Of a stretch of DNA of 64,000 nucleotides, positions 879 through 49,779 are shown one piece after another (positions within the stretch are counted from its first letter, which is position 1; each line of letters begins with the position of its first letter). Position numbers and translations under genes: made by a program. The notes beneath the pieces were generated by a model. The model made no database searches and was not told where the DNA came from. It saw only the letters and a list, made by a program, of their open reading frames with translations. This DNA is from Omnitrophica WOR_2 bacterium GWF2_43_52 (GTDB taxonomy: Bacteria; Omnitrophota; Gorgyraeia; Gygaellales; UBA12090), in NCBI GenBank assembly GCA_001805445.1, contig MHGF01000028.1:73651-137650 (forward strand). Reading direction: 5' to 3'.

Positions 879-892
879 GCTTTTAAAATAAA

Positions 893-1189
893 TGGGCAGG
901 AGAGGATTCGAACCTCTGAAGCACAGGTGCAACAGATTTCAAGTGCCCTCAAGTTACCTCGAGGCTTGGACTATCTCATCATCCTTTTTGCAGGATGGTA
1001 GGCGCTTAGTCTCTGCACCTTCCCCGATAATCCCTAGATAGAAATAGGCACATATCGGGGCTTGGCTCAGGATTGCCCGCCACAAAACTCTGGCGGGGTT
1101 CCCTGAATTCACCTACTTTTCCACCATGCATTACTGCATGGCGCTGCGTTTACACAGTCTGTCCCCTTTGGCCGCTTGGGTACCTGCCC
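893..1189 (-). tRNA. tRNA-Tyr(GUA) gene interrupted by a 214-nt group I intron in the anticodon loop (exons 1189-1154 and 939-893)
   Basis: 7-bp acceptor stem GGGCAGG/CCUGCCC plus discriminator A. D-arm CCCAAGCGGCCAAAGGGG is nearly identical to E. coli tRNA-Tyr. Anticodon stem ACAGA...UCUGU. Joined loop CUGU|AAA gives anticodon GUA. Long variable arm GCACCUGUGC and T-arm AGAGGUUCGAAUCCUCU. CCA is not encoded. Confidence 0.65.
940..1153 (-). other. Group I intron (self-splicing ribozyme candidate, no ORF) inside tRNA-Tyr
   Basis: Follows exon U and ends with G (omega-G). P1 pairing CUGU/GCAG with U.G at the splice site. P2 hairpin CCAUGCA-GUAAU-UGCAUGG. R-like GUGCAGAGACUAAG, S-like GAGAUAGUCC and Q-like AAUCCUGAGC elements. 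P5 (CCCGCCA...UGGCGGG), P6 (CCCCGAUA...UAUCGGGG) and P8 (AUCCU-GCAAAA-AGGAU) hairpins. Confidence 0.6.
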
Positions 1190-1428
1190 ATAAAAAACTA
1201 TATTCTTTTACCCAATTCTTAATTACATTTAGTAATTTCTTGTCATTATATCTAATATGCACTAAACCGTAAAGCAATTTTCTCTTACTCACATCCACCT
1301 TATTCATTATTATATTTGGAAATTTCCTGGTTATTGTAATTTTTGTCTCAGCATAGAGCTTTAACTATATCTCAATTTAATTTATCTATGTACATATTTT
1401 ACTGAATAATTTATCAAAATTATTTAAA

Positions 1429-25975: not shown

Positions 25976-26003
25976 TTGACAAAACCCGTTTTTGTGTTAT
26001 ACT
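25976..26003 (+). promoter_or_regulatory. Near-consensus sigma70 promoter TTGACA-16/17-(TG)nTATACT
   Basis: TTGACA at 25976-25981, extended -10 TGtTATACT at 25995-26003. Confidence 0.55.
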
Positions 26004-26009
26004 TTAAGT

Positions 26010-26218
26010 AGAAATTTGAACTTTGACACTATGTGTAAACGTACCAATTGTCCCGGCCCTCGATAAGCTCGGTCGGGATCCCGCTAAAGCGGGAAAAAAG
26101 GCTAACTAAGGGTAACCTTGGGGCGCAAAGCTACCTGTCCGCCAATCACTATGGCGGATAGAGGAGCTGCCAAGCTGGTGAAAAACCTCAAAAATGCCTT
26201 TTTGAGGTTTTTTGTTTG
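26010..26218 (+). ncRNA. Structured leader / candidate riboswitch or sRNA: several hairpins, then intrinsic terminator (26184-26218)
   Basis: Hairpins CCCGGCC...GGTCGGG, CCCGC-TAAA-GCGGG, TCCGCCA...TGGCGGA; terminator AACCTCAAAAA-TGCC-TTTTTGAGGTT-TTTTGTTT; contains GGGGCGCAAAGCUACC. Confidence 0.35.
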
Positions 26219-26292
26219 TAGAATGCTTGTTCCTAAACCATGCCCGCGAGATTTATCCCCAAAAAGCCTTACAAGCTTAAGGAGGATTAAAC

Positions 26293-26622
26293 ATGAACAC
26301 GGTAACAGCCATTCGGATTATGTTCATCGCGCTTACCCTTATGCAGTCAATGATAGATACTGTGTATGGGGGGGATTCGGCTTCGGTAAGGGTTTCCTGC
26401 ATTATTCCCTCAATTCCCGGGGTCAATGCGCCGCTTCTTGACACACTATCAACGCAACAAGAAACTCAACCGCTAACGGAAGAAAAAGAAACCCAAGTAA
26501 TACAAGAGGAAACCCAAGAGAAAAAACCAGGATGGCTGCAACAGACTACGCAGGTAGCAGCGGTAGAGAAAGAATCGGGGAAAACACAACTCGTGGCTAT
26601 TGATACTTTTTACAGCCGCTAG
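26293..26622 (+). CDS. Small secreted/TM hypothetical protein (Thr/Gln/Glu-rich tail)
   Basis: Strong RBS AAGGAGG 7 nt upstream of ATG; hydrophobic N-terminus. Confidence 0.55.
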   Translation: MNTVTAIRIMFIALTLMQSMIDTVYGGDSASVRVSCIIPSIPGVNAPLLDTLSTQQETQPLTEEKETQVIQEETQEKKPGWLQQTTQVAAVEKESGKTQLVAIDTFYSR

Positions 26623-26625
26623 AAT

Positions 26626-29541
26626 TTATTTCTGTATTTTCTTAAGCGGAATGTTATGCTTAAAACTCATTCCTTCGGTAACCTGAAAATCTTTATAGAT
26701 GGAAACGGAAGGCAGATACTCCGCGGGTAAACTCTCCAAATCCAAAGTCACGGTATGCGCGCCTACCTCAACCCTAAAAGAATATTTTCCGGAACTATCA
26801 GTTTTTGCCTTGGTGCCGTCTTCTAAAATTACACTCAGGCCTCTTATCCCTTTATCATCAGAATCTAATACTCCATTAGCATTGGTATCCTCAAACACAA
26901 TACCGCTTATTTCCGAACGATTGCTTAATCCAAAGTCAATTCTCGTTGTCTGGCCATGGCTCATTTTTATTTCCTGGGTCAGGCCGGATAACAACATATA
27001 GCCTAGAGGGATAGTCTTGGTATCAATACTCACATAGGCCTTCTTTGCCTTTACCTTGGTTAAACGGTAATAACCGGATGCGTCAGTATCTATTGATTTT
27101 TCCTTGCCTAACCAAAGCTTTACTCCGGAAATCCCCAGCTCATTTGATTCCTTAAGCCCATCCTGATTATCATCGTTAAACACATAGCCGTCTATCGTGC
27201 CAATAGACTCCCATTTAACCCCCGTATCCCAGACATAGCGCATTCCGGTATTAAAGTTTGCTTCCATGCGTTTAGACGCGTTTGGATTTTCCGCCCAGAT
27301 ATTGCGGAAACGGCAGGAACCAAAAATTTCCATGTCGCTATTGGGCCGGTAGGCCAATTCCGCGTAGTTCTCAATATAATCTTCACCCGCGAAGAACCCA
27401 AGATTAGAAACCGTCTTTTCCTCATCGCGATAGCTAAAACGGAAATTCCCGTAAAAAGGAGACGCCTTGCCGAGGGATCCATACCATTCAACGCCTGTTT
27501 CATAGGCATGCGGCATGGTATGATTACCGTTAAATCTCTCTTCAAACCAGTTCAGGTCCTTATTAAAATAATAATACAAATCGCCGATAATGCCAAACCG
27601 CAAGCCGGCAGTAAATTTATCGTTGATATAATCCGAAAGCGGCGATGAAAAACTTTTATTTTCCTGATGATAATAATTCGCGTAGGTATTAATATCCCGC
27701 AGCAACCTGAACTTGCGGGTTACCCCAATGCCGGAGCTTTGGTAGCGTACCTGGCTTACCCTTCCTAGTTGATTTGACAGATTATAACTTAAGCTATAGT
27801 ATGTCACAGGGTCTGCCTGATAATTAGCGTTCCAGCGGACGTCTTCATTCAGACGCGTATCGTTATCCAAAGCCGGATTAATCGTATCCCTATAGACGTT
27901 TACACTGCTATTAATGCCTAATTTCTCCGTAGGCGAATAACTTAAATCAAAAAGCCCGCCCTGCTCTCCCTGACGTGAAGCTGATCCCCGCACTGTGTTA
28001 TAATTCTTATCAATATCCCTAAATTCCGCGCTGGCAACAAACTTAGGCTGATTATAGGTAGCCTTCAAAATATGGGCAAAACGTTCTGTATTATTGGCTA
28101 TTTCATACTGCAGGCCCCAAATATCATTAAGCCTCCAAGTGCTGGCTAAATCATAGGCATAGGAATTCAAGGCGCTTTGCCGGTCATGGCCCCATCCATG
28201 GGCAACATTGAACTTATAATTTTGTTTCTTTGTTGGTGAAAAGCTAAAATTTACCCCTTCAAGGAATAGATCATTTTTAGTAAATACCCCCGGAGTAATA
28301 TTCCCGAACGACCCTCCAGATTCCCGGCCATGATAGACACTATAATCAAGCTTGTTATTTAACATCGCAGCCTTCACCATTGCCCCGCGTAAGGCTACGT
28401 TTGAAACCGCAAGGTTTGAGGCAAATACAGGATAAAAATCAAAACCCCTGACGTCAAAGCCTTTAAACGGCCCAATGCGGCTATTGGTAAGGCCTGCGGT
28501 ATAATAGGTAAATTCCAAACTGGTTTTAAACCTTTGTACCACAGCATAAGAATCAAAAGCCCCATAGGGTGTATCACCGGCTAACCCAAAACCCTGAGAT
28601 GAAGAATAACTGATGCGGTTAAAACTCGCTACTCTCCTGCCACTTTCTATTGATGACCAGTCAAAGGCATAACGCAGTTTAAAATTACCCGCTTTTTCCG
28701 CCTCAAGCCGCTGCGCTTCTTCATACGAATTTACTATTTCCGGCAAAACCCCGAAGATTTCTATGGTTGAGCGCCCCCGGTCATCCCAAATATGTAACTC
28801 GGTATACCCAACATTCTTTCCGCTAAGTAAAAGCTCGTCCACCCCCTGCTTTTGCGCATCAATAATATTGGCTTCCGTAACCAAAAACCGCTGGATATTC
28901 CTACCGGAAAACACGATGCTTTCACCTAACTCTATCTCCAAAGGCTGGGTTGCCGTGCTTAAATATTCCTCTAAGATAAGCAGGGTAGGTTTTAAGGCTT
29001 CCTTCTTGAGCGCGTCTTTCGCGGGCACCTTAACAGCCCGCGAAGAAGGAATGGAGGCAACTGATGACTTCTCAAATTGTTTCAATTCCTTATCTATAAG
29101 CTTATTTTTTTTCTGTAATTCTGTTTTTGCGGTCGCGGCTAGTTTTTGAGAGGCAGAAGATATAGGATGCTCAGCTTTCTCTAACGCTTTAGAGACAGCA
29201 TCCTTTGATTTTAACTCTTTAACGCTTGGGGCTTCTTGAGCAGGCTCTATCACCGGCTCAAAGGTTTCCTGAGCAAAAGGCGCTTTAATCTTTACAGCTT
29301 GGGGGGGCTCATTCTTTTTTATTCCTTCAATGAGCCTGATATAGCGCATAGCCAGTTCATTATCTGACTGGATAAGGATGGCCTTATTAAATTCATGCAA
29401 GGCATCGTCGTAATCACCTTCATTATACAACTTTATCGCGTATTCACACAAAAAATAGGGGATTTCCGTATAGGCGTAAAGAGGATACTGTTGACCGCTA
29501 AGAAAAGCTATCAACAGAAATAAGCTGATTATCTTTTTCAC
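26626..29541 (-). CDS. Large outer-membrane/secreted protein: signal peptide, TPR-like N-region, CpaC-N-like domain, predicted beta-barrel region, three C-terminal Cna-B/SdrD-B-type repeats
   Basis: LEIELGESIVFSGRNIQRFLVTEANIIDA...LLSGKNVGYTELHIW resembles Flp-pilus secretin N-domain; aromatic/Asn/Gly-rich middle; GYVFNDDNQDG.../GIVFEDTNANG... repeats. Confidence 0.5.
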   Translation of the reverse strand: MKKIISLFLLIAFLSGQQYPLYAYTEIPYFLCEYAIKLYNEGDYDDALHEFNKAILIQSDNELAMRYIRLIEGIKKNEPPQAVKIKAPFAQETFEPVIEPAQEAPSVKELKSKDAVSKALEKAEHPISSASQKLAATAKTELQKKNKLIDKELKQFEKSSVASIPSSRAVKVPAKDALKKEALKPTLLILEEYLSTATQPLEIELGESIVFSGRNIQRFLVTEANIIDAQKQGVDELLLSGKNVGYTELHIWDDRGRSTIEIFGVLPEIVNSYEEAQRLEAEKAGNFKLRYAFDWSSIESGRRVASFNRISYSSSQGFGLAGDTPYGAFDSYAVVQRFKTSLEFTYYTAGLTNSRIGPFKGFDVRGFDFYPVFASNLAVSNVALRGAMVKAAMLNNKLDYSVYHGRESGGSFGNITPGVFTKNDLFLEGVNFSFSPTKKQNYKFNVAHGWGHDRQSALNSYAYDLASTWRLNDIWGLQYEIANNTERFAHILKATYNQPKFVASAEFRDIDKNYNTVRGSASRQGEQGGLFDLSYSPTEKLGINSSVNVYRDTINPALDNDTRLNEDVRWNANYQADPVTYYSLSYNLSNQLGRVSQVRYQSSGIGVTRKFRLLRDINTYANYYHQENKSFSSPLSDYINDKFTAGLRFGIIGDLYYYFNKDLNWFEERFNGNHTMPHAYETGVEWYGSLGKASPFYGNFRFSYRDEEKTVSNLGFFAGEDYIENYAELAYRPNSDMEIFGSCRFRNIWAENPNASKRMEANFNTGMRYVWDTGVKWESIGTIDGYVFNDDNQDGLKESNELGISGVKLWLGKEKSIDTDASGYYRLTKVKAKKAYVSIDTKTIPLGYMLLSGLTQEIKMSHGQTTRIDFGLSNRSEISGIVFEDTNANGVLDSDDKGIRGLSVILEDGTKAKTDSSGKYSFRVEVGAHTVTLDLESLPAEYLPSVSIYKDFQVTEGMSFKHNIPLKKIQK

Positions 29542-29552
29542 TTATATTTTTA

Positions 29553-30440
29553 TCATTTTAACTGGCCAACCCTGTTGACCTTACCGTTATAGCCAAATTC
29601 TATTTCCGCTTCTTTAGTAATAATCGGGCCCCTGCCTAAGCCGGCTTCTTCCTGGGCTTTTCCTATGTCAACAGTTACTACCATATCATAGGCCCCTTCA
29701 GGTATCGGCTCGTTATGGATATCCCAGTTTGCCTTAAGCTTAGCTGTATCACCGGGAAATGTATACGCCTTATTAAATCCCGAGCGGGCATAGACAACGC
29801 CTTTTTTATCTATAACGTGGAAGGTGCCACCTGCGGTAATATCCACGTTACCGGTATTCTTAACATCAAGCTCTATCTCAAGCCTGTTTTTGTAGGGTTC
29901 TCTTTCTACGCTGAGGTTATCTATAATTCCTTCGCGTTTGGTTGCCCCTTTAATTTCTACATACACTATCGTCCCCACCCTGACCGTCAAATCAATGGCG
30001 GCACGGTCTTCTTTCGCAGGCTCTGCCTGGCCAAAGACGGTTTCATGGAACAAGACAGCATAATAGCCGCCTTCCACATCTTTATCCGGGACACTAATAG
30101 TATAATGTATTTTTTGCTGTGCTTGGGGAGGGAGGATAAATTCCTGCGGGGTAAATTTTATCCAAGGGGCGCAGGAACGTTGGGTAGAGCCCGCGGGGAA
30201 GAATTCCTTGGCGCCATCAGCGCCGGGGGCATAGCGCCAGTCTTCAAGGTATAAACGGATACTTCGTGTTTCTGAACTAGGATTAGAGAGGACCAGCTCG
30301 CCAAAATATTTCTCACCCTTAGCAATAACGTGCCGGACCTTCGGCTGGCTCATTACCGGCAGGTCTACTGCCCGGGAAAGATTGGTAAAGCTGACAAGAA
30401 AAAAAGATGCAATAAATACTATTTTCTTAATGCTTGGCAA
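29553..30440 (-). CDS. Periplasmic PapD-like pilus chaperone candidate (probable TTG start at 30440)
   Basis: Signal peptide; KYFGELVLSNPSSETRSIRLYLEDW resembles chaperone N-domain; AAGGAGA RBS 7 nt before TTG. Confidence 0.45.
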   Translation of the reverse strand: MPSIKKIVFIASFFLVSFTNLSRAVDLPVMSQPKVRHVIAKGEKYFGELVLSNPSSETRSIRLYLEDWRYAPGADGAKEFFPAGSTQRSCAPWIKFTPQEFILPPQAQQKIHYTISVPDKDVEGGYYAVLFHETVFGQAEPAKEDRAAIDLTVRVGTIVYVEIKGATKREGIIDNLSVEREPYKNRLEIELDVKNTGNVDITAGGTFHVIDKKGVVYARSGFNKAYTFPGDTAKLKANWDIHNEPIPEGAYDMVVTVDIGKAQEEAGLGRGPIITKEAEIEFGYNGKVNRVGQLK

Positions 30441-30460
30441 AAATCTCCTTTCCATTTTTT

Positions 30461-30620
30461 TGCTTTACTAGGTTGTTATACACTTTAGTTAACGCTGAAA
30501 AAGCATGTCAATCGGCAACGGCTAGGGTAACGAAGCCCGTATCGTCTAAAGGCAACGGTAACGTCTAAGACGACAATCCTCACCGAACTACGAAACGGGC
30601 ATCGTCACCGTAGCCCGTAC
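30461..30620. repeat. Conserved ~150-nt element, copy B, in the chaperone/pilin intergenic gap
   Basis: ~80% identical to 1-170 including compensatory stem changes. Confidence 0.5.
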
Positions 30621-30755
30621 ACTTTACCAAATATAGGATTTTTCAGGTAAACTAATTTATATTATATAAATGCTCTTCTTCAACGGTAGAGAGCAGTATT
30701 GATTATAGATATAGCCTCTACCGTCTCCAAAGAATAGCCGCTCTATTAACCCAGT

Positions 30756-31367
30756 TTACGGAGCAAGGGTTAAGGTTACACTACCGGTATACGTTCCACC
30801 CGGCTGCGTGGCATTAATAGGTCTTACCCCCGGGTTATCCGTAGTATTTCCTGTGCCTATGCCATAATAGATTCGTAACCATCCCGTTGAATTAGTGCCA
30901 AGTATTTGGGCCTTAGTAAATGTTGCCGCTGACCCAGTTGCATTGGCATAGCTTAATTCAGCCAAAGGAGTAAGAACACTCGTATTACTACTAAGCTGTC
31001 GGATAAAGTCAACATTGATGTTATTATTAAGAGTTGCGTTACCATTGGCCACGTTTGTACGCGCATGCGTAAGCGTCCAGGCATTCCCGGTATTATCAAC
31101 TACCCCGCAATCTACCGCATAATAGGAAGTGGGGAGAAAAATACCAAGAGTTGAATTATAGGTCAAGGTTCCGAAATCAATGCTGGTTGCATTTGCCCAA
31201 GTGGTGCCAGTAACCCTAGAAACTGTCAAATTCAATGTGCTTGATGTTGGAATAACCGCTCTTACGGTTACTGTCTGCGTGCCGCCGGCATAACAAAACA
31301 AAGGCACCCCTACTAATAACGCCCCAATTATCAGGGCAAATATTATATCACCTGTCTTTTTCTTCAT
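30756..31367 (-). CDS. Secreted spore-coat-U (SCPU)/Csu-type pilin-like protein
   Basis: Signal peptide, Thr/Asn/Gly-rich beta protein, N-terminal TQTVTVRAVIP and C-terminal GGTYTGSVTLTLAP like Csu/SCPU subunits. Confidence 0.5.
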   Translation of the reverse strand: MKKKTGDIIFALIIGALLVGVPLFCYAGGTQTVTVRAVIPTSSTLNLTVSRVTGTTWANATSIDFGTLTYNSTLGIFLPTSYYAVDCGVVDNTGNAWTLTHARTNVANGNATLNNNINVDFIRQLSSNTSVLTPLAELSYANATGSAATFTKAQILGTNSTGWLRIYYGIGTGNTTDNPGVRPINATQPGGTYTGSVTLTLAP

Positions 31368-31480
31368 TGTATCCTCCCTTTTATTAATAATATTCCTAAA
31401 ACTTTACTTTCCATCAATTCTTTCTCTTTTTTCTACTTACTACTCACTACTCGAAAACCAACACCTCCCCTCCCTAAAAT

Positions 31481-32893
31481 TTATATTTCTAACAAAGAAT
31501 AGCTAATCTTTGTCGAATAATCTCCTGCCTTGACATCCATCGGGCTGGCTAATTCATAAACAGCCCTGAATTTATCCGATGAACCCGCGTCATCTGAAAC
31601 AAACAAAACTACATCTCCCGGACTTACCTCCTGGCTCTGAGGAATCTTTAAGACTCCCTTCGTTTCCATTGCCTCGGTCTTTACGGTAAAATATTTCGGC
31701 TTTATCACATTGCCTTCTTTATCAGACAAGGCCGCGATAACATTCTGGTTGACCTGATATTTTTTTCCTGTATTAGTCTTAATTTCGATAACCACCTCAT
31801 TTTTTTTCGTTCCTTCGCCGGGCTTAATATCACGAAACTCTATCCCCGCTCCGGGTTCCTGAGGGGTAAGTATAATATCAAAGACCTGTTCATTCTCTAC
31901 TTCCAGCTCCAGTGTTTTACGGTCAAGCTCTATCCCCATTTCTTCAATACTGTATTGCAGGCGGGAACGGTATCTTCCTGCCCGGCTAACCTCTGAATCT
32001 TCCAAACGATACCTTATGCTAAATCCGGCATCTGCTTCACCAGTGGGTTTTGAGGTATAGACAACCTGAGGGCTATCCGACAATACTCCTGGCGCCGGAA
32101 CCGTGCCAAGCTTTACTCCGGAGACTTCTATAGCTATTATTTTGGGCTCAAGAGACTTACCTTCTACGGTTTCAAGGGGCTTAAGCAGGGTCTGTTTTAT
32201 AGTAAATGGTTTTGTATGGCTTCCATTGAGTGTAACGCTAACATCGCATAGTTTCTTTTCTTCGCTCTTTGAATTAAGGTAAATAACGCTTGAGCCGCTG
32301 GCTGTGGTTACCTCAAGAGATGGCTTCATTGCTGCCTCATCAGCCTTTACTATTAAAATCACATTCAAGATTGTAGAAATTGAACTTTGCCCGGAGCCTA
32401 CGGGAATAAAGGTAAATCTCATCTGCCCGCGGTATAAGTCAGGAGTAATTCCTTGCGGGGCTACATACGTATATATTAAAGTAAAAGAATCGGGAGAACC
32501 GTTTTGGTTTGAAGTATAGAGTACAGAATTAGTGAGCGCTTCGGGGTTAACCTTTAACCTGCCGAATCTATTGGTTCCTGACAGGCCGGAGACTAAAAAA
32601 CTACTCCAGGGAATCTCACTTCCTTTGGCATTACGCAGAGCCGAAAATGGCTCCTGGCGTATCTCGTATTGCGCGCTTGTGCCTAATATCTCAACATCAA
32701 CTTCGCTATTGACTTCACGATAGAGGGAACTGCCCTGAGAAAAGCTCAACTCCTGAGCGCCGGAATGAGGCCTTGCGGTAAGAGAAACATCGGCAAAACA
32801 ATTAGGATAGAAAAGGAGAAAAGATAAAAAAAGACCCACACACACACTTGAAGCCTTCAATAAATAAGGGTATTTTATTTTCATGGATTTCAC
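31481..32893 (-). CDS. Secreted 470-aa protein with SCPU-like C-terminal motif (tip/adhesin-like subunit candidate)
   Basis: Signal peptide; ends GDYSTKISYSLLEI; beta-rich. Confidence 0.4.
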   Translation of the reverse strand: MKSMKIKYPYLLKASSVCVGLFLSFLLFYPNCFADVSLTARPHSGAQELSFSQGSSLYREVNSEVDVEILGTSAQYEIRQEPFSALRNAKGSEIPWSSFLVSGLSGTNRFGRLKVNPEALTNSVLYTSNQNGSPDSFTLIYTYVAPQGITPDLYRGQMRFTFIPVGSGQSSISTILNVILIVKADEAAMKPSLEVTTASGSSVIYLNSKSEEKKLCDVSVTLNGSHTKPFTIKQTLLKPLETVEGKSLEPKIIAIEVSGVKLGTVPAPGVLSDSPQVVYTSKPTGEADAGFSIRYRLEDSEVSRAGRYRSRLQYSIEEMGIELDRKTLELEVENEQVFDIILTPQEPGAGIEFRDIKPGEGTKKNEVVIEIKTNTGKKYQVNQNVIAALSDKEGNVIKPKYFTVKTEAMETKGVLKIPQSQEVSPGDVVLFVSDDAGSSDKFRAVYELASPMDVKAGDYSTKISYSLLEI

Positions 32894-32974
32894 ACCCCTT
32901 TTCAGTTTTATTTTACTCCCTCAGCCTGATAGTGTCAAGCAAAATAATCTCAATTTCTATAACAAAACAAAAAG

Positions 32975-33004
32975 CCGGATTGACCCATTTCTGTCAATCC
33001 GGCC
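32975..33004 (-). terminator. Hairpin GCCGGATTGAC-N8-GTCAATCCGGC followed on minus strand by U-run
   Basis: Seen directly; related hairpin sharing GTCAATCCGGC at 49904-49932. Confidence 0.55.
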
Positions 33005-33718
33005 ATAAAATTCTCCCACCTTACGGTGAGGCTATCGTGGCAGCCCTTGACTACCTCCATAATCAAGGACACCGGACCTAAAATGTTTTAAAAAACTTAA
33101 TTAAAGTATATACCGCAAGACAACTTTTGTCAAGTACAATTGCTCTGTTGAGCTGTTGCTAACTCAATTCTCAATGAATGAATAAACGACACTAAAAACA
33201 CTTTTTCGCTAGTTGACAAATACATCTGCCCCTTAATCCTGCAGTAGAAATGCTCTACCCTGCACCTCGTATCCTGCTTTCTGACTACGTAGAGCGTTGG
33301 TTTAGGCAAAATATCGCTCGATTGGGCAATACTGCTAATCCTACAAACCAAATGACGATGTACACAGCTGCGCACCCCCTTCTGCTCCATAAATTCAGAG
33401 CTCGAGAGGATCCTCTGCTTTCGATCATCAGAAGTAATATTTTTAAATAGCAGGTTTCGCATCGTCTCACCTTTGATTGAATAATCCATACGCATTACCT
33501 TACTTTAAGAATTTGCACCACCGTGGCTGGCAGAGAAATAATACTATTTTAAAAAGTTTTTATTAACTACTTACAACAACATCTTACTTAAAGTATACCA
33601 CCAATTACCTTAAATTCAATAGTAAAACAGCTATATTTTGGAAGCGTTTTCCTGAATAGTCGTAACGGAAGGACTCAAGATGTCAACAAGTGAGCACGAA
33701 AGGAAATTTTAAATAATC

Positions 33719-45276: not shown

Positions 45277-48200
45277 TTAATTATAGAGCATATCCGGCGC
45301 AAGCAAGGCGCGACGAAGCTCAGGGCTGCTTTCTTTGCCCGCAAGCTCCTCAAGCCTGCAGGCATCACTGAGAGTAATGATGATATCCTGAAGCCTTCCC
45401 TGCAATTCATCCCTCTGATAGCAGGCCGCGATAAACTCAAGGATGCGTAAACCATTGGGGATAATCCCTGCCTTCATGGTTGCCTGAATCTGGCTGAACT
45501 CATTATCAAGGTCTATCAGCTCTGCGTCGCGTAGTACGGGCAAATCTAGATTCAATCCCGCAAAACTCCCCCTTCGCTCAAGCGTAGTGGCGTCATTCAT
45601 TATTGTATCCCTAAAGTCCAATCCGCCGCGCTTTTCTCCACGAAAAGAGGTTTCTGTATCCAACGATAGAGCGCTTGAACTCTCCGCGAAGGCACTCGCT
45701 GCGATACTCGCAAAGCCTAGACTAAAACTAATTATTGTATATTTTTCTCTCGGCAGCTCATATCCTGTGTCCCTACCGAGGAAAATCCTTGTAATCCGTA
45801 TAGCCTCCCTTAAAAAATCCACTTTAAAGCTTAAGGCTTCCTTGGAAATATGCTCCTTGAGCCATTCCTCCTCTTCAGGGCGGAAATAGTTTCCTTCTTT
45901 TATTTTTTCAAAGAAATGTTCAAGCCTGTCATTATTCTGCGTAAGCTCTTGCTCCACTTTCTCGTCAAGCTCTAGTTCCACCTTAAGAGCCATTACAGAA
46001 AAATATTCTTTCATTACTTTGAGCAAAAATTCATCCCTTTCTTGCATCTGAACATCTTTTTCTATTTCTTCACTCTTCATTTCCTTGACCCAAGAGGCTA
46101 AAAAGTCCCCTCTCGTATTTCTGCCATCAACAGACGTTAAACCATCAACTAAACTGATAATAGCTTTATTCTCCGCGTAGCGCGCGTTATCAGCAAGCTT
46201 TTCAGTTATCACTTGTTTTAACGCGTCAACCATTATAAATCCTGCTTTTTCTCCGTACGCGCCCAAAACATCAATAATCACATCTTTCTGGCATTTAAGA
46301 AGCGGCGGGGCTACCGATAGATAAGGAGCGGATAAGATTTCAGAAACGCCCGTTTTTTTCTGCCAATTTTTTACTATAGCTTCGGCTTGGACATACTCTA
46401 CACGTATCAACTCGCCTTTCTTTTCTAGCCTTTTCTTACCCAATAATTCATTCAACCAATTGAGTACGTCGTTATTTTTTGAGGTATACTCACTATTTAT
46501 TATTACAGGCTCTTTGTCCTTAGCAGCTTCTAATAGCTCGCTCATCCCGGCAATTATTAACGCCTTATTTATATCCAATGTTTTTCCATTGACATTAGTA
46601 ATTATTCGCGCTTTCTTCTCTAAAACAAGCACCCCCACTACTCTATCCCCTGCCCCTAAGGCAATACGTATCCTGTCCGATTTTTCACCCGATAGATAAG
46701 CTACGGTAACTTCCCGATTATCAAATGTGTAAAGCTCAACAGGCCTTTCCAATGTCGTAAGGACAAAATTCATAGCATTCTCGGCAGAGGCATAATGAAA
46801 TTTATACGGCCTTTTGTGAATAGGTACCGATAAAGTCCTCCAGGTCAGCGGTGAGGCGGAATAGGCTTTCAGTGGCGACGATACCTGGGATTGTTCCCAA
46901 TAATACCTTATCACCTTCAGCATCCCCTCTTTTACTTTCCTCGTTTCTGGAGTGCCGATAACTATACCAACCTTAGGCCAATCAAACCGGGCATCCTTAA
47001 AAAATTCCATAAAACTCCCCAGCGGTTCAAGCCCCGTCTCTTTATTCTCGGCTTTCCAATTCATCCCTATAGTTAAAATTTTATTCTTCTTCGCTCCTTG
47101 TCTAAGTGCCGCCTCTACAAAGGGAGTAAGTGCCACAACTGTTTTCGCGGACTTACCCAAAATCGCCCCATCTACAGAAGACAGGCCAAGTATCTCATCA
47201 GCATTCTGCGCGGTTAAGCCTCCTACAAAATAAACATCAAGATCAATGTGCAAGGCTTTCTTGAGTGCGTTTTTTATGACGGAATGCTCTTTTTCAATCT
47301 GCTCTCTTTCACGAACCTTTTCTTTAGGCAATTCGCGCGGTTCATAGGCAATCCTTAAGCCAATGGCACCTGCGTCCTCTGCCGTTATCCCTTCTAGAAT
47401 TTCCGCTATATCTTTCTCAAGAATCTCATTAGTCTTTCCTTGTTCCCTCTGCCAGGATACTTCACCAAGAAAAAGAATAGTTCGCTTTATCGGATGGTTC
47501 TTCGCAAAAATAACAGTTTTCTTCAACTGTAGATTCGTTATTGTGTTTGCAACATAACGGGCCTTAGCTGCCAAGCTTATAGCATTGAGGCCTACATAAG
47601 TATTGCTCTTAAGAGAAAGGCTTTCAATCCCTTCAAGATTTACCCCTTCTGCTTCTAACGTTTTTCTCCATTTTTCATCTCTTTTTGCTTCAGTTTTATA
47701 TTCCGGATTATTGAATATATTACCCAAAGCGTTTTCAATCCTTTCCTCAATCTCTTTTCTCCATTCCGGATGATTAGCAATGATCCCGTCTAATAAACTG
47801 GCATTGCCAATATTAGTCCGCCCAGTACGCGATCCCTCTGGAAGTGATATAGTATTAGCCACGACAAGAAAATTATCCCTTATTCCGAGCGGCAAGGCAG
47901 AGGGCTTCCTCCCTAACGCCTTATTTTTGACATCAACGCCTTCAAGCTCCTGAAGCGCTGACTTTGTTCCATCTGCGGCTGTTCCCTTCAGGACAAACGC
48001 GCGAATCTCTTCAGAAAGGCGAATGAATCTAAATCCCAATTCAACATCGTGCAATGTATTCTGAGCTATTGAGCTTAATTTATTTGCCGCGGAAACAAAA
48101 TCATTGTTATAGAAATATCCTTTCAGTTCTCTTTTATCTTCTTCGTCTAAATAATTCTTACGCTCTAATTGGGCAACAAACCTATTTATTTCGCTTTCAT

Positions 48201-49779
48201 AGCGGGCCATACGCAATAACCATACGCGTATCTTTTCCCATTTTGCTTTATCATCATCGTTGATACGCGGAAGTATAATAGTTTGTTGAATTAAATTGCT
48301 GAGATAATTACAAGATATTATTTCCCCCGCCTCTTCTCTTTCCTTTATATCCCACGCGTATCTTACACCGAGATTCCTTATTTCAACTTTTATCTCATCC
48401 ATGGTCAATGGCGAAGCGGCCAAGGCTAAAGATTCTTCTGTAGTAATGTGTGGGTCAATAATTTGCAAATTACTATCAAAGGCTGCTACATTGTCCCTCT
48501 TTACAAGCCACTGAGTAACCTCTGGATTTACTCCTCTGTACCCTCCACCGGTCAGTGGACTTGAGTTGCCCACAGCGCGATGAGTAGACGTAAAAATATT
48601 TTCTATCCCCTCCAAAGTAAGCCCTCCGCTGGTATAGTTCCGGACACTATGACCGTAAGGCGTATACACAGAATCCTTGATAGTGTACTCACCTTTATTA
48701 AAAGAATTCTTGTATTGATTAAAGTAGGTGGTTTTATCCCAGTTCTCTTTGGAGGTGAGGTTAGTGAGATTACGTGAATCTATAAGCTTACTATAGTCTG
48801 GTGTGCCGGTAAGCGGGTTAACCGGTTCACTGACTGACCCGTTCACTGGCGGTTCACCAAAACGAGCCTTAAACCATCGTGAGAGTATCAGCGAATAATA
48901 CACCTGTCGTAGTTTTGCGTACCGTTGGCTTGAGTTTACTTCTCTGGTAAGTTTGGGAATTATGCTTTCCCTGATAAGCTGAGTAGAATATTCATTAAGT
49001 TCTTTGAGCCTTTTGTCATTAAAATTATACTGGTGACTGGCGACAGGAGACTGGAGACTTTCTTTCAAATAGTCTTCTTCCAGCAATACCTTAAGCGTTG
49101 CCTTATACACATACGCAGAATCATCTGTCTCTCTAACGATAATTTCATTGGGCACTATCCATGGGCGGGTTAAGGTGGGGATGGTAATATTCTCAGAACC
49201 AAATAATTCCCCTGCCTTTTTATAGAGCTTATCCCAGTAAGCCTTGCCTTCCGGGGTTTGTGGTGAGGTAAGGCTTGCGGTATCCTTCTTAAGCTGTAAA
49301 TCTGCCTCTAAGAATACCTTGCCTATATCAGTCATCTCTAACTCTGGGTCTATGATATTCTCAGGGGCATCCGGCCTTAGGTTTACCCAAAAGGTATCAT
49401 TCGGTAGGGTTACTCCTATCAGAAAGTATCTCATTAACTCCTGAGCAGTTTCCTTGAGTACACTATCTTCCTTTTCTGGTGACGTGCCTGCCCCGACCGA
49501 AGCGTCGGGGGTGACCTGGTGACCTGGTGACGTGGTGACCTGGTGACCTGGTGACCTTTCATAGTCTCCCTTGTCTAAGAGTATCTTATAGCTGTTATTC
49601 AGGCTGTCATAGGAGAAATATCGTAAGTGCACAGGCCGAAAGATATCAGGCTTAACAAGAGTAGTATGCAACTGGCTCAGATAGCTTGAAAGGTTAAGTT
49701 CTCCTGCGGCATAGATAACCCCGCCCTGGTTAAACAGCAAGCCGATAGCTACTACTATTGAGATTACCCTACGTAACAT
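45277..49779 (-). CDS. Giant (1500 aa) secreted protein containing a degenerate triosephosphate-isomerase-like barrel segment; otherwise unknown
   Basis: Signal peptide; segment RTILFLGEVSWQREQGKTNE...IAYEP...VYFVGGLTAQNADEILGLSSVDGAILGKSAK aligns with TIM beta5-beta8; followed by ILTIGMNWKAEN (GNWK-type motif) and VGIVIGTPE. Confidence 0.65.
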   Translation of the reverse strand: MLRRVISIVVAIGLLFNQGGVIYAAGELNLSSYLSQLHTTLVKPDIFRPVHLRYFSYDSLNNSYKILLDKGDYERSPGHQVTTSPGHQVTPDASVGAGTSPEKEDSVLKETAQELMRYFLIGVTLPNDTFWVNLRPDAPENIIDPELEMTDIGKVFLEADLQLKKDTASLTSPQTPEGKAYWDKLYKKAGELFGSENITIPTLTRPWIVPNEIIVRETDDSAYVYKATLKVLLEEDYLKESLQSPVASHQYNFNDKRLKELNEYSTQLIRESIIPKLTREVNSSQRYAKLRQVYYSLILSRWFKARFGEPPVNGSVSEPVNPLTGTPDYSKLIDSRNLTNLTSKENWDKTTYFNQYKNSFNKGEYTIKDSVYTPYGHSVRNYTSGGLTLEGIENIFTSTHRAVGNSSPLTGGGYRGVNPEVTQWLVKRDNVAAFDSNLQIIDPHITTEESLALAASPLTMDEIKVEIRNLGVRYAWDIKEREEAGEIISCNYLSNLIQQTIILPRINDDDKAKWEKIRVWLLRMARYESEINRFVAQLERKNYLDEEDKRELKGYFYNNDFVSAANKLSSIAQNTLHDVELGFRFIRLSEEIRAFVLKGTAADGTKSALQELEGVDVKNKALGRKPSALPLGIRDNFLVVANTISLPEGSRTGRTNIGNASLLDGIIANHPEWRKEIEERIENALGNIFNNPEYKTEAKRDEKWRKTLEAEGVNLEGIESLSLKSNTYVGLNAISLAAKARYVANTITNLQLKKTVIFAKNHPIKRTILFLGEVSWQREQGKTNEILEKDIAEILEGITAEDAGAIGLRIAYEPRELPKEKVREREQIEKEHSVIKNALKKALHIDLDVYFVGGLTAQNADEILGLSSVDGAILGKSAKTVVALTPFVEAALRQGAKKNKILTIGMNWKAENKETGLEPLGSFMEFFKDARFDWPKVGIVIGTPETRKVKEGMLKVIRYYWEQSQVSSPLKAYSASPLTWRTLSVPIHKRPYKFHYASAENAMNFVLTTLERPVELYTFDNREVTVAYLSGEKSDRIRIALGAGDRVVGVLVLEKKARIITNVNGKTLDINKALIIAGMSELLEAAKDKEPVIINSEYTSKNNDVLNWLNELLGKKRLEKKGELIRVEYVQAEAIVKNWQKKTGVSEILSAPYLSVAPPLLKCQKDVIIDVLGAYGEKAGFIMVDALKQVITEKLADNARYAENKAIISLVDGLTSVDGRNTRGDFLASWVKEMKSEEIEKDVQMQERDEFLLKVMKEYFSVMALKVELELDEKVEQELTQNNDRLEHFFEKIKEGNYFRPEEEEWLKEHISKEALSFKVDFLREAIRITRIFLGRDTGYELPREKYTIISFSLGFASIAASAFAESSSALSLDTETSFRGEKRGGLDFRDTIMNDATTLERRGSFAGLNLDLPVLRDAELIDLDNEFSQIQATMKAGIIPNGLRILEFIAACYQRDELQGRLQDIIITLSDACRLEELAGKESSPELRRALLAPDMLYN
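49509..49556. repeat. Octamer tandem repeat GGTGACCT x6 (one GGTGACGT) inside the giant ORF (encodes SPGHQVTT SPGHQVTP)
   Basis: Seen directly; seventh degenerate unit at 49477-49486 across a CCCCGAC-CGAAG-GTCGGGG hairpin. Confidence 0.8.

Follow-up and report, generated by a model that had tools for sequence, protein, structure and literature searches.

Few bacterial adhesins are understood as well as chaperone-usher (CU) pili, which have hardly been recorded outside Proteobacteria and a few other phyla. Their families are classified as classical, alternative and archaic, of which the classical and alternative ones occur only in beta- and gamma-proteobacteria, and the archaic class is also known beyond Proteobacteria (PMC4654587). 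The Omnitrophota are ultra-small, uncultivated and probably predatory or parasitic bacteria, for which attachment to a host is central (PMC10066038); the pili discussed in the main studies of this phylum are of the type IV and Tad kinds only, and we found no link between Omnitrophota and CU systems in the literature searched. Here we describe a locus of Omnitrophica WOR_2 bacterium GWF2_43_52, identified in a stretch of 64,000 nucleotides (nt) of contig MHGF01000028.1 (positions 73,651 to 137,650; "the window" hereafter), which comprises four co-directional genes for secreted proteins (A to D) and a fifth, convergent gene (E) behind a cyclic di-GMP (c-di-GMP) riboswitch. We propose, with a probability of roughly 70%, that this locus is a deep-branching CU variant, unrecognisable at the level of sequence, which serves to build a surface fibre and is conserved across Candidatus Omnitrophota.

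The system has the folds expected of a CU chaperone and a CU usher, yet fails all sequence-profile tests for the classical, alternative and archaic families, apart from a profile link of C to EcpB of the alternative class; we regard it as a new variant of the pathway. An earlier note, based on the sequence alone, had described A–D as a divergent chaperone/usher-like fibre system with D as a possible non-canonical outer-membrane platform. All four open reading frames (ORFs) are found exactly where that note had placed them, and its general proposal is supported by the folds of C and D, not by hidden Markov model (HMM) matches: among the profiles it had recommended (SCPU, PapD, usher and PF13629), only PF13629 was matched, and we judge its view that null results for SCPU and PapD would refute the proposal too strict for proteins of such divergence. 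The earlier reading was also incomplete, as it missed gene E and the riboswitch.

Protein C has the fold of a strand-donating chaperone

The AlphaFold2 (AF2) model of C (pLDDT 91.7) consists of a signal-peptide helix followed by two beta-sandwich, immunoglobulin (Ig)-like domains. Foldseek comparison of this model with the PDB identified WxLIP from Enterococcus faecium as the best match (9i25, 9i1y; 1e-11), including a structure bound to a long WxL protein, followed by the CU chaperones CfaA, CsuC, FimC, EcpB, SfaE, Caf1M, SafB and DraB (1e-9 to 1e-7), which span the alternative, archaic and classical classes. Among the CU chaperones the best TM-scores (0.56–0.61) were obtained for CfaA (Foldseek 1.7e-9); CsuC (6fqa) scored 3.7e-9. 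EcpB was the sole match when the C family profile was searched against PDB sequences (4e-4). It also gave the only meaningful result in a panel of HHalign comparisons of our family profiles with the E. coli proteins FimA/C/D, EcpA/B/C/D and CfaA/B/C/E: the C family aligned with K-12 EcpB at 88% probability (E 2.9e-6) over 138 columns, covering the whole N-domain.

In the HHalign alignment the donor residues A111, A113, A115 and I117 of EcpB (for the roles of individual EcpB residues see PMC4654587) correspond to I154, L156, V158 and V160 of C, and the C family consensus over this strand reads v-n-l-a-v-R-i. The predicted G1 donor strand of C thus shows alternating hydrophobic residues and a flexible preceding segment: in the model a loop of low confidence (residues 141–155) leads into a strand (156–168), and the low pLDDT of the loop is reminiscent of the F1-G1 loop of subunit-free chaperones. 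Two arginines are conserved in the family, R41 of the first strand, which is nearly invariant and falls on Arg8 of FimC in a weak alignment, and R159 of the donor strand, which is invariant. In known CU chaperones the C-terminal carboxylate of the subunit is anchored by Arg8 and Lys112 of D1 (classical) or by Arg89 of F1 together with Tyr/Arg of D2 (non-classical); R41 and R159 are candidates for an anchor of the classical type.

Family-wide profile scans covered 48 members of the C family, 48+61 of the B family and 49 of the A family, together with family consensus sequences. Neither PapD_N (PF00345) nor PapD_C (PF02753) was detected in C, in the members of its family or in the consensus. From the model, C is predicted to be a periplasmic, chaperone-like protein of two Ig domains with the PapD/WxLIP fold. 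The PapD-like pattern that the earlier note had seen in the N-domain of C is supported by no PapD sequence profile; support for a chaperone comes from the two-Ig fold and the profile link to EcpB.

A and B as candidate subunits, and the relationship to WxL proteins

B belongs to a large, self-contained family: an exhaustive profile search of 1.84 billion representatives collected 510 clusters at 50% identity, nearly all of ~200 amino acids (aa), and gave no bridge to known pilin families. Neither B nor A revealed a Pfam or PDB relative in single-sequence or profile searches. Both had been linked to the Csu/spore-coat-U (SCPU) pilins, A on the grounds of a C-terminal motif and B on those of its N- and C-terminal strands, and this affiliation is not upheld, as PF05229 matched neither A or B nor any of the scanned members of their families or the consensus.

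The mature B protein starts with a conserved strand, 'TQTVTVRAVIP' (family consensus 'TVTVxATVP'), in which alternating hydrophobic residues are followed by a proline, and ends with the strand 'GGTYTGSVTLTLAP'. The position of the C-terminus is fixed to within a residue: of 209 database representatives of B, 177 end 13–14 aa past a G-x-[YFW]-x-G motif, usually with 'TLTP', and 67 of 68 homologues of A end exactly 14 aa past their G-x-[YFW] motif. Such fixed C-termini are expected if the free C-terminus of the subunit sits in the chaperone cleft.

HHalign comparison of the two families revealed that A consists of three tandem B-like domains (Table 1). The first of them aligns only from residue 60 of B onwards and lacks the ~20 N-terminal residues, including the N-terminal strand, that are present in B and in domains 2 and 3; in the latter two domains the B-like N-terminal strand begins 6–8 residues after the last strand of the preceding module. 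This layout, as read from the sequence, is that of engineered pilins complemented in cis by a donor strand, and is consistent with a tip subunit that needs no donor strand. The sole pilus-related PDB alignment of the A profile was to the CfaE–CfaB donor-strand fusion 3f83 (E≈1, far below threshold); it falls exactly at the junction of modules 1 and 2, is non-significant and counts only as consistent with the proposed model. Similarly, the only local match of B and A to EcpA, CfaB and CfaE was to the extreme C-terminal F-strand motif of these proteins (E 0.03–0.06, individually non-significant). We propose that B is a pilin-like major fibre subunit and that A is a tip subunit or adhesin.

The similarity of C to WxLIP raises another possibility, namely that the locus is the diderm counterpart of a WxL/WxLIP display system, in which C would permanently hold monomeric B, and A, by strand insertion, D would be an outer-membrane translocon or anchor, and the product would be an adhesin complex displayed on the surface instead of a fibre. 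The segments 'aWTLTH' and, at the C-terminus, 'GtYtGsvTLTLaP' of B may resemble the two WxL motifs. WxLIP is known to complete the beta-sandwich of the WxL domain by a donated strand (PMC10599100), it is the best structural match of C in both its free and its WxL-bound form, and PF06030 (WxLIP_PGBD) shows weak matches in the N-domain of 12 of the 48 C-family members, compared to none for PapD. However, all these matches score below the curated cutoff (15–17 versus 27.3 bits), the model of C has no C-terminal transmembrane helix, which is a defining feature of WxLIP, and the WxL domain was found neither in any B-family member, even at E<=1, nor in members of the A family. WxL clusters also lack an usher-fold outer-membrane protein such as the one present here, and the organisation of A, which resembles a pre-polymerised trimer of B whose first module has no N-terminal strand, fits serial strand exchange. 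We therefore regard the WxL-type alternative as improbable, and favour the interpretation of the locus as a fibre-building CU variant.

Protein D is a structural homologue of ushers

The AF2 model of D (pLDDT 80.3) shows, from the N- to the C-terminus, a TPR region, a disordered linker, a PF13629 beta-domain, a short helix (residues 273–283), a large barrel and two beta-sandwiches (Table 1). The top 14 Foldseek matches of this model were ushers only, with FimD complexes at 1e-20 to 1e-16, PapC at 4e-15 and isolated usher translocation domains at 5e-10 to 1e-8; the next fold class starts at 1e-8. The alignments with full-length ushers comprise ~760–820 columns and include regions outside the barrel, and FimD and PapC were the best solved-structure matches by two methods. 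The layout of D, with periplasmic N-domains, a barrel and two C-terminal beta-sandwiches, parallels the NTD, barrel, CTD1 and CTD2 of ushers, and the combination of a large barrel pore with C-terminal beta-sandwiches that characterises ushers is found in the model.

At the sequence level the picture is different. Searches of PDB sequences with D, as a single sequence or as a profile, gave clear matches to TPR and SdrD only (the family profile matched consensus TPR proteins at 2e-13), and none of the usher domains PF00577, PF13954 and PF13953 was detected by Pfam in the protein or in the family consensus. Judging from its model, D is an outer-membrane usher homologue, although the earlier note had considered no canonical FimD-type usher to be evident in the cluster. 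The signal peptide, TPR, PF13629 domain and long beta-rich region that it had assigned to D were all recovered; in place of its three C-terminal Cna-B repeats we find the two beta-sandwiches.

Could D instead be a general outer-membrane channel or transporter, with the TPR and beta-sandwiches as periplasmic accessories, and A, B and C merely co-localised Ig-like proteins of the periplasm or surface, involved for example in substrate binding? We consider this very unlikely: Foldseek puts ushers about 10 orders of magnitude ahead of other barrels over ~800 columns, the strict adjacency of D to the gene of a chaperone-fold protein (11 nt in the window; C immediately upstream in 66 of 68 complete D genes) is a hallmark of CU operons, and control by c-di-GMP (see below) fits adhesion rather than nutrient uptake. 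A secretin-based pilus of the Tad or type II kind is effectively refuted: PF13629 does exceed its gathering cutoff in D, NCBI labels the protein "pilus assembly protein N-terminal domain-containing protein", and the D profile weakly matches the type II/type III secretion (T2SS/T3SS) secretin-family structure 8jvb (E 0.12) and RcpA (E 1.9), but apart from this N-terminal domain no Secretin domain was found in D, which is modelled as a monomeric, many-stranded barrel of the usher fold, the cluster contains no ATPase, platform or prepilin genes, and B is led by a signal peptide of the ordinary Sec type instead of a class III prepilin leader.

Distribution and gene order

B, C and D have dozens to hundreds of homologues each, and their named sources are nearly all Candidatus Omnitrophota/Omnitrophica. 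Relatives of C are present in at least 121 species-level genomes (in a scan of one genome per species), and among the genomes with the cluster is that of the cultivated Ca. Velamenicoccus archaeovorus LiM (NZ_CP019384.1:1117333-1134082; L081, the L numbers being our labels of the compared loci). A few metagenome-assembled genomes among the sources are labelled by NCBI as Planctomycetales, Elusimicrobia or Margulisiibacteriota, labels that are unconfirmed.

The gene order A–B(n)–C–D is repeated across 79 loci with unrelated flanking genes, which puts the clustering far from chance. These loci were selected via C; a cross-check started from two divergent homologues of D revealed the same A-B-C-D order, and hence D is not a stand-alone gene. 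A solitary occurrence of D homologues had been named in the earlier note as a finding that would speak against a fibre system, as had the absence of a common transcript. Regarding the latter, A in the window is preceded by its own promoter-like site, located after the terminator of the upstream gene, and together with the 11-nt gap between C and D and the order kept across loci this agrees with the genes being transcribed as one cluster.

Variations of the layout occur. Extra B+C pairs were found in L035, L036, L040, L046, L047 and L054, and are reminiscent of CU operons that encode more than one subunit and chaperone; L011 and L013 contain two D genes, and tandem clusters and duplicated B genes occur as well. 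In L061, L066, L069 and L070 a B-like gene of 175–184 aa is inserted between D and E, on the strand of E, with which it appears to be co-transcribed. The cluster is modular, which suggests that a cell has more than one type of fibre or variant of a subunit. A sub-lineage of five loci (L028, L029, L033, L037 and L041) exhibits the order B-A-C-D. No E was found there in the loci where the region downstream of D is available (L028, L029 and L041), the riboswitch was matched in none of the five, and this sub-lineage constitutes a natural E-less comparison group.

Gene E and its c-di-GMP riboswitch

Gene E, preceded by a strong Shine–Dalgarno sequence (AAGGAGG), encodes a secreted protein of ~80 residues. 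All E proteins are built of the same four parts: a signal peptide, an N-terminal strand with the conserved pattern 'S.S..VSCTIP.IPGVNAP', an acidic linker that varies, and a C-terminus conserved as '..T.YSR'. Homologues of E occupy the same position in 58 loci (L001 and L002, for instance, have it in the same place and orientation); of 63 complete D genes, 54 are directly followed by E, and in another five cases extra genes lie in between. When the N-termini of E and B were compared after removal of the signal peptides, residues 2–23 of each aligned in exact register (E 0.0047, versus 0.27 for the reversed control). The segment is short, and the resemblance of the N-terminus of E to the N-terminal strand of B is suggestive.

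The leader of E contains a full-length c-di-GMP-I aptamer, which scores 59.8 bits with RF01051 (gathering score 35; E 3.5e-9) and 52.5 bits with the related variant RF03167, and is followed in this 5' leader by a terminator, the Shine–Dalgarno sequence and the ATG. The terminator (RNAfold -15.6 kcal/mol) is presumed from the sequence to be the expression platform. According to folding, the A-rich 5' segment of the aptamer can alternatively pair with the 3' arm of the terminator as an anti-terminator, an arrangement compatible with either an ON or an OFF switch. Among nine other loci, six gave an Rfam match to the aptamer ahead of E, for which the GGC variant RF03167 was often the top-scoring model. 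With a covariance model built from the Rfam hits, the aptamer was identified in front of 51 of 56 E genes; of the remaining five, two are cut by contig ends. In nine loci the same model revealed a second copy of the aptamer, on the operon strand and directly upstream of B or A (Table 1), which implies that the structural genes of those lineages are riboswitch-controlled. Another link to this second messenger is a gene for a protein of ~120 aa with the c-di-GMP receptor domain PilZ (PF07238, E 1.3e-12), which borders the cluster on its 5' side in ~8 loci. The ORF of 121 aa located upstream of A in the window (33130-33495, - strand) was considered as a counterpart and rejected; it is not PilZ and matches no family.

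Riboswitches for c-di-GMP are described as controlling adhesins and pili (PMC6200980, PMC6366702), and no other riboswitch class lies as often antisense to an adjacent gene (PMC9943018). The stop codons of the convergent genes D and E are separated by 3 nt and there is no terminator in the gap between them; given the antisense habit of this riboswitch class, transcription of E may interfere with D. On the other hand, conservation at the protein level argues that the E protein itself is functional. With a pilin-like strand and no pilin body, it would most plausibly cap, terminate or anchor the fibre, or regulate how it is assembled.

Proposed assembly pathway

We envisage the following pathway. 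Proteins A to E, all of which have signal peptides in their sequences, would be exported by Sec. In the periplasm C would capture A and B by inserting its G1 strand, with the four hydrophobic residues listed above, into the groove of the subunit, and would probably also hold the strictly conserved C-terminal strand of the subunit. D would provide the usher pore, a function suggested by its fold; its two C-terminal beta-sandwiches would receive the chaperone-subunit complexes, and its TPR and PF13629 domains would replace the canonical usher N-domain. A, with its three covalently linked B-like modules, the first of which lacks an N-terminal strand, would enter first, as the tip, and B would then be added one at a time, each copy presumably donating its strand 'TVTVRAVIP' to the previous subunit. 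Finally E, expressed convergently from its own promoter behind the riboswitch and the terminator, would act as a strand-only cap or in one of the other roles considered above, so that display of the fibre would be tied to the response of the riboswitch to c-di-GMP.

Several observations weigh against the interpretation as a CU system. Regarding D, the pTM of the model is 0.55 and the global TM-scores to ushers are low (0.3–0.4); HHalign comparisons with FimD, EcpC and CfaC are non-significant, and the relationship to ushers is consequently visible in structure only; according to DSSP the barrel of the model consists of 26 uninterrupted long strands and has no plug insertion of ~80 aa; and there is no PapC_N-type N-domain, its place being taken by the TPR, the linker, PF13629 and the short helix. 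Regarding C, the best single structural match is WxLIP, from a Gram-positive surface system that forms no fibre, the HHalign comparisons with FimC (1.3% probability) and CfaA are non-significant, and Arg89 of EcpB, the "super-conserved" F1 arginine of non-classical chaperones, aligns with a conserved alanine. No PapD, usher, SCPU or fimbrial match of Pfam or NCBIfam was obtained for A–D, ~200 members of their families or the consensus sequences. The incomplete Ig fold of B and donor-strand exchange are assumptions of the proposed pathway, and no microscopy or proteomic evidence of fibres was found in the literature searched. We nevertheless consider a divergent CU system the best account of the folds found for C and D, of the modules that A shares with B and of the conserved gene order.

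A more far-reaching proposition would be that the system is a fourth CU class, nearly universal in Omnitrophota, in which the riboswitch gates the fibre via the strand-only E, and that the pair of C and its subunit is the evolutionary link between the Gram-positive WxL/WxLIP systems and the Gram-negative CU pili; in this full form we find it doubtful.

A CU system that is invisible to profiles and spread across Omnitrophota would widen the range of this pathway. Owing to the different periplasmic front end of D and the orphan subunit family, it would also provide a far outgroup for recognising the essential features of donor-strand assembly. The cluster is an unreported candidate attachment organelle of Omnitrophota, and its presence in the cultivated V. 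archaeovorus LiM makes the system testable. The near-universal riboswitch in front of the mini-protein E would be an unusual mode of pilus regulation and would provide many GGC-variant copies with a function; an Omnitrophota preprint that we searched for the term contains no mention of a riboswitch. Finally, the likeness of C to both WxLIP and CU chaperones hints that the Ig-fold chaperones which donate strands in monoderms and those in diderms share an origin.

Features of the locus and its surroundings

The coordinates of all features are collected in Table 1. A and B are separated by 113 nt, B and C by 300 nt, and C and D by 11 nt. The B–C spacer (30456-30755, - strand) is unusually long; a hairpin (CGGTAGAG...CTCTACCG) lies within it, as do two promoter-like sites, and it gave no Rfam match. 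In other CU operons, hairpins after the major pilin genes set the ratio of subunit to chaperone and usher expression. By analogy, the hairpin of the B–C spacer may have the same role here.

Table 1. Coordinates of the features described in the text (positions in the window unless a locus is named; amino acid ranges refer to the respective protein)
Feature	Position	Strand	Description or basis
Gene A	32893..31481	-	470 aa; signal-peptide-like N-terminus; C-terminal end AGDYSTKISYSLLEI
A domain 1	aa 46-164 = nt 32402-32758	-	HHalign 96.9%, E 1.4e-10
A domain 2	aa 173-316 = nt 31946-32377	-	HHalign 78.4%, E 1.7e-5
A domain 3	aa 326-468 = nt 31490-31918	-	HHalign 93.3%, E 2.7e-7
Gene B	31367..30756	-	203 aa; Thr/Asn/Gly-rich; signal-peptide-like N-terminus
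Gene C	30455..29553	-	300 aa; signal-peptide-like N-terminus
Gene D	29541..26626	-	971 aa; signal-peptide-like N-terminus
D TPR	aa 23-75 = nt 29317-29475	-	weak in Pfam
D disordered linker	between TPR and PF13629	-	AF2 model
D PF13629 (T2SS-T3SS_pil_N) beta-domain	aa 186-265 = nt 28747-28986	-	32.7 bits versus cutoff 23
D barrel, ~26 strands	aa 288-772 = nt 27226-28680	-	AF2 model, DSSP
D SdrD_B/CarboxypepD_reg-like beta-sandwiches	aa 780-875 and 877-968 (aa 780-968 = nt 26638-27204)	-	Pfam E 8e-19 and model
Gene E	26293..26622	+	109 aa; convergent with D; ORF and strong Shine–Dalgarno sequence
c-di-GMP-I (GEMM-I) riboswitch aptamer	26090..26174	+	leader of gene E; Rfam RF01051
Intrinsic terminator hairpin, 15-bp stem and U-tract	26180..26220	+	between aptamer and E
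Promoter-like site TTGACA-16-TATACT, extended -10 TG	25976..26003	+	ahead of riboswitch and E; consensus scan, 11/12 matches, pattern only
Promoter-like site TTGACA-17-TAAAAT	32910..32938	-	17 nt 5' of A start codon; consensus scan, pattern only
Strong terminator of gene upstream of A	33004..32973	-	precedes the promoter-like site of A
Second aptamer upstream of B	L079:6931-7019, L074:2489-2574, L075:7078-7168	operon strand	covariance model
Second aptamer upstream of B	L061:6964-7055, L066:6963-7053, L067:6469-6553	operon strand	covariance model
Second aptamer upstream of A	L032:4906-5014, L051:322-422, L044:1409-1539	operon strand	covariance model
PilZ gene	L084:3437-3805; also L025, L064, L080, L035, L054, L047		5' cluster edge; PF07238

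As regards the remainder of the window, 47 of the 48 ORFs of at least 200 aa are located on the - strand and the GC skew is negative throughout; owing to this dominance of the - strand, E is among very few + strand genes in 64 kb. An ORF of 1500 aa is located at 45277-49779 (- strand). A gene for tRNA-Tyr(GUA) at 892-1190 (- strand) contains a group I intron of 214 nt in the anticodon loop (Rfam RF00028, 93 bits at 947-1163); the split tRNA was called by ARAGORN with introns allowed, and a tRNA-Thr gene adjoins it at 1429-1501. Mobile intron RNA from the Omnitrophota predator V. archaeovorus has been reported to accumulate in its archaeal prey (PMC13153191, 2026).

Comparison with known systems

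[quoted passage not shown] No known protein other than EcpB resembles C in sequence, CfaA is the CU chaperone closest to C by TM-score, and the subunits have in common their size (~170–200 aa) and a C-terminal strand of the pattern 'G-x-[YW]-x-G-x-h-x-h-x-h'. In contrast, B, A and D show no significant similarity to EcpA, EcpD and EcpC or to CfaB, CfaE and CfaC, the carboxylate anchor Arg89 of EcpB is replaced by alanine in C, and D has TPR and PF13629 domains where these systems have the usher N-domain, as well as C-terminal domains of the SdrD_B type. Direct comparison of the operons revealed neither a counterpart of gene E nor a riboswitch in ECP or CFA/I.

With respect to the classical systems (type 1 pili, Fim, and P pili, Pap), D is closest in fold to FimD and PapC, and the fold of C is like that of FimC, SfaE and Caf1M. 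Classical ushers, however, have 24 strands and a plug, compared to ~26 predicted strands and no plug insertion in D; the N-domain differs, no signal of PF00345, PF02753, PF00577, PF13954 or PF13953 was detected, and the subunits have no relationship to Pfam's fimbrial families. The archaic systems (Csu, CupE) resemble the locus in that CsuC is among the top matches of C and in that their subunits are thin, Thr/Gly-rich and of a single domain, but here SCPU is absent from B, A and ~150 members of their families, and there are differences both in gene order and in the domains of the usher.

The WxL/WxLIP (DUF916-DUF3324) systems contain the protein closest to C in fold and share the principle of strand donation (PMC10599100). 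A WxLIP protein is composed of DUF916, DUF3324 and a C-terminal transmembrane helix and has a partner with the WxL domain (PF13731), whereas C has no such helix and matches PF06030 only below the cutoff, and B is not recognisable as a WxL domain; moreover, WxL clusters belong to Gram-positive bacteria and their WxLIP is anchored in the membrane, whereas here the host is a diderm and an usher homologue is present. As to regulation, the c-di-GMP-I-controlled adhesin and pilus genes of Clostridioides difficile and Bacillus thuringiensis (cbpA) likewise combine a 5' leader and a terminator with a secreted, surface-related gene product, but the aptamer described here precedes a strand-linker-strand protein encoded convergently with an usher, and not an adhesin or pilin. 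Taken together, the closest relatives of the system are EcpB for C in sequence, WxLIP for C in structure and FimD for D in structure.

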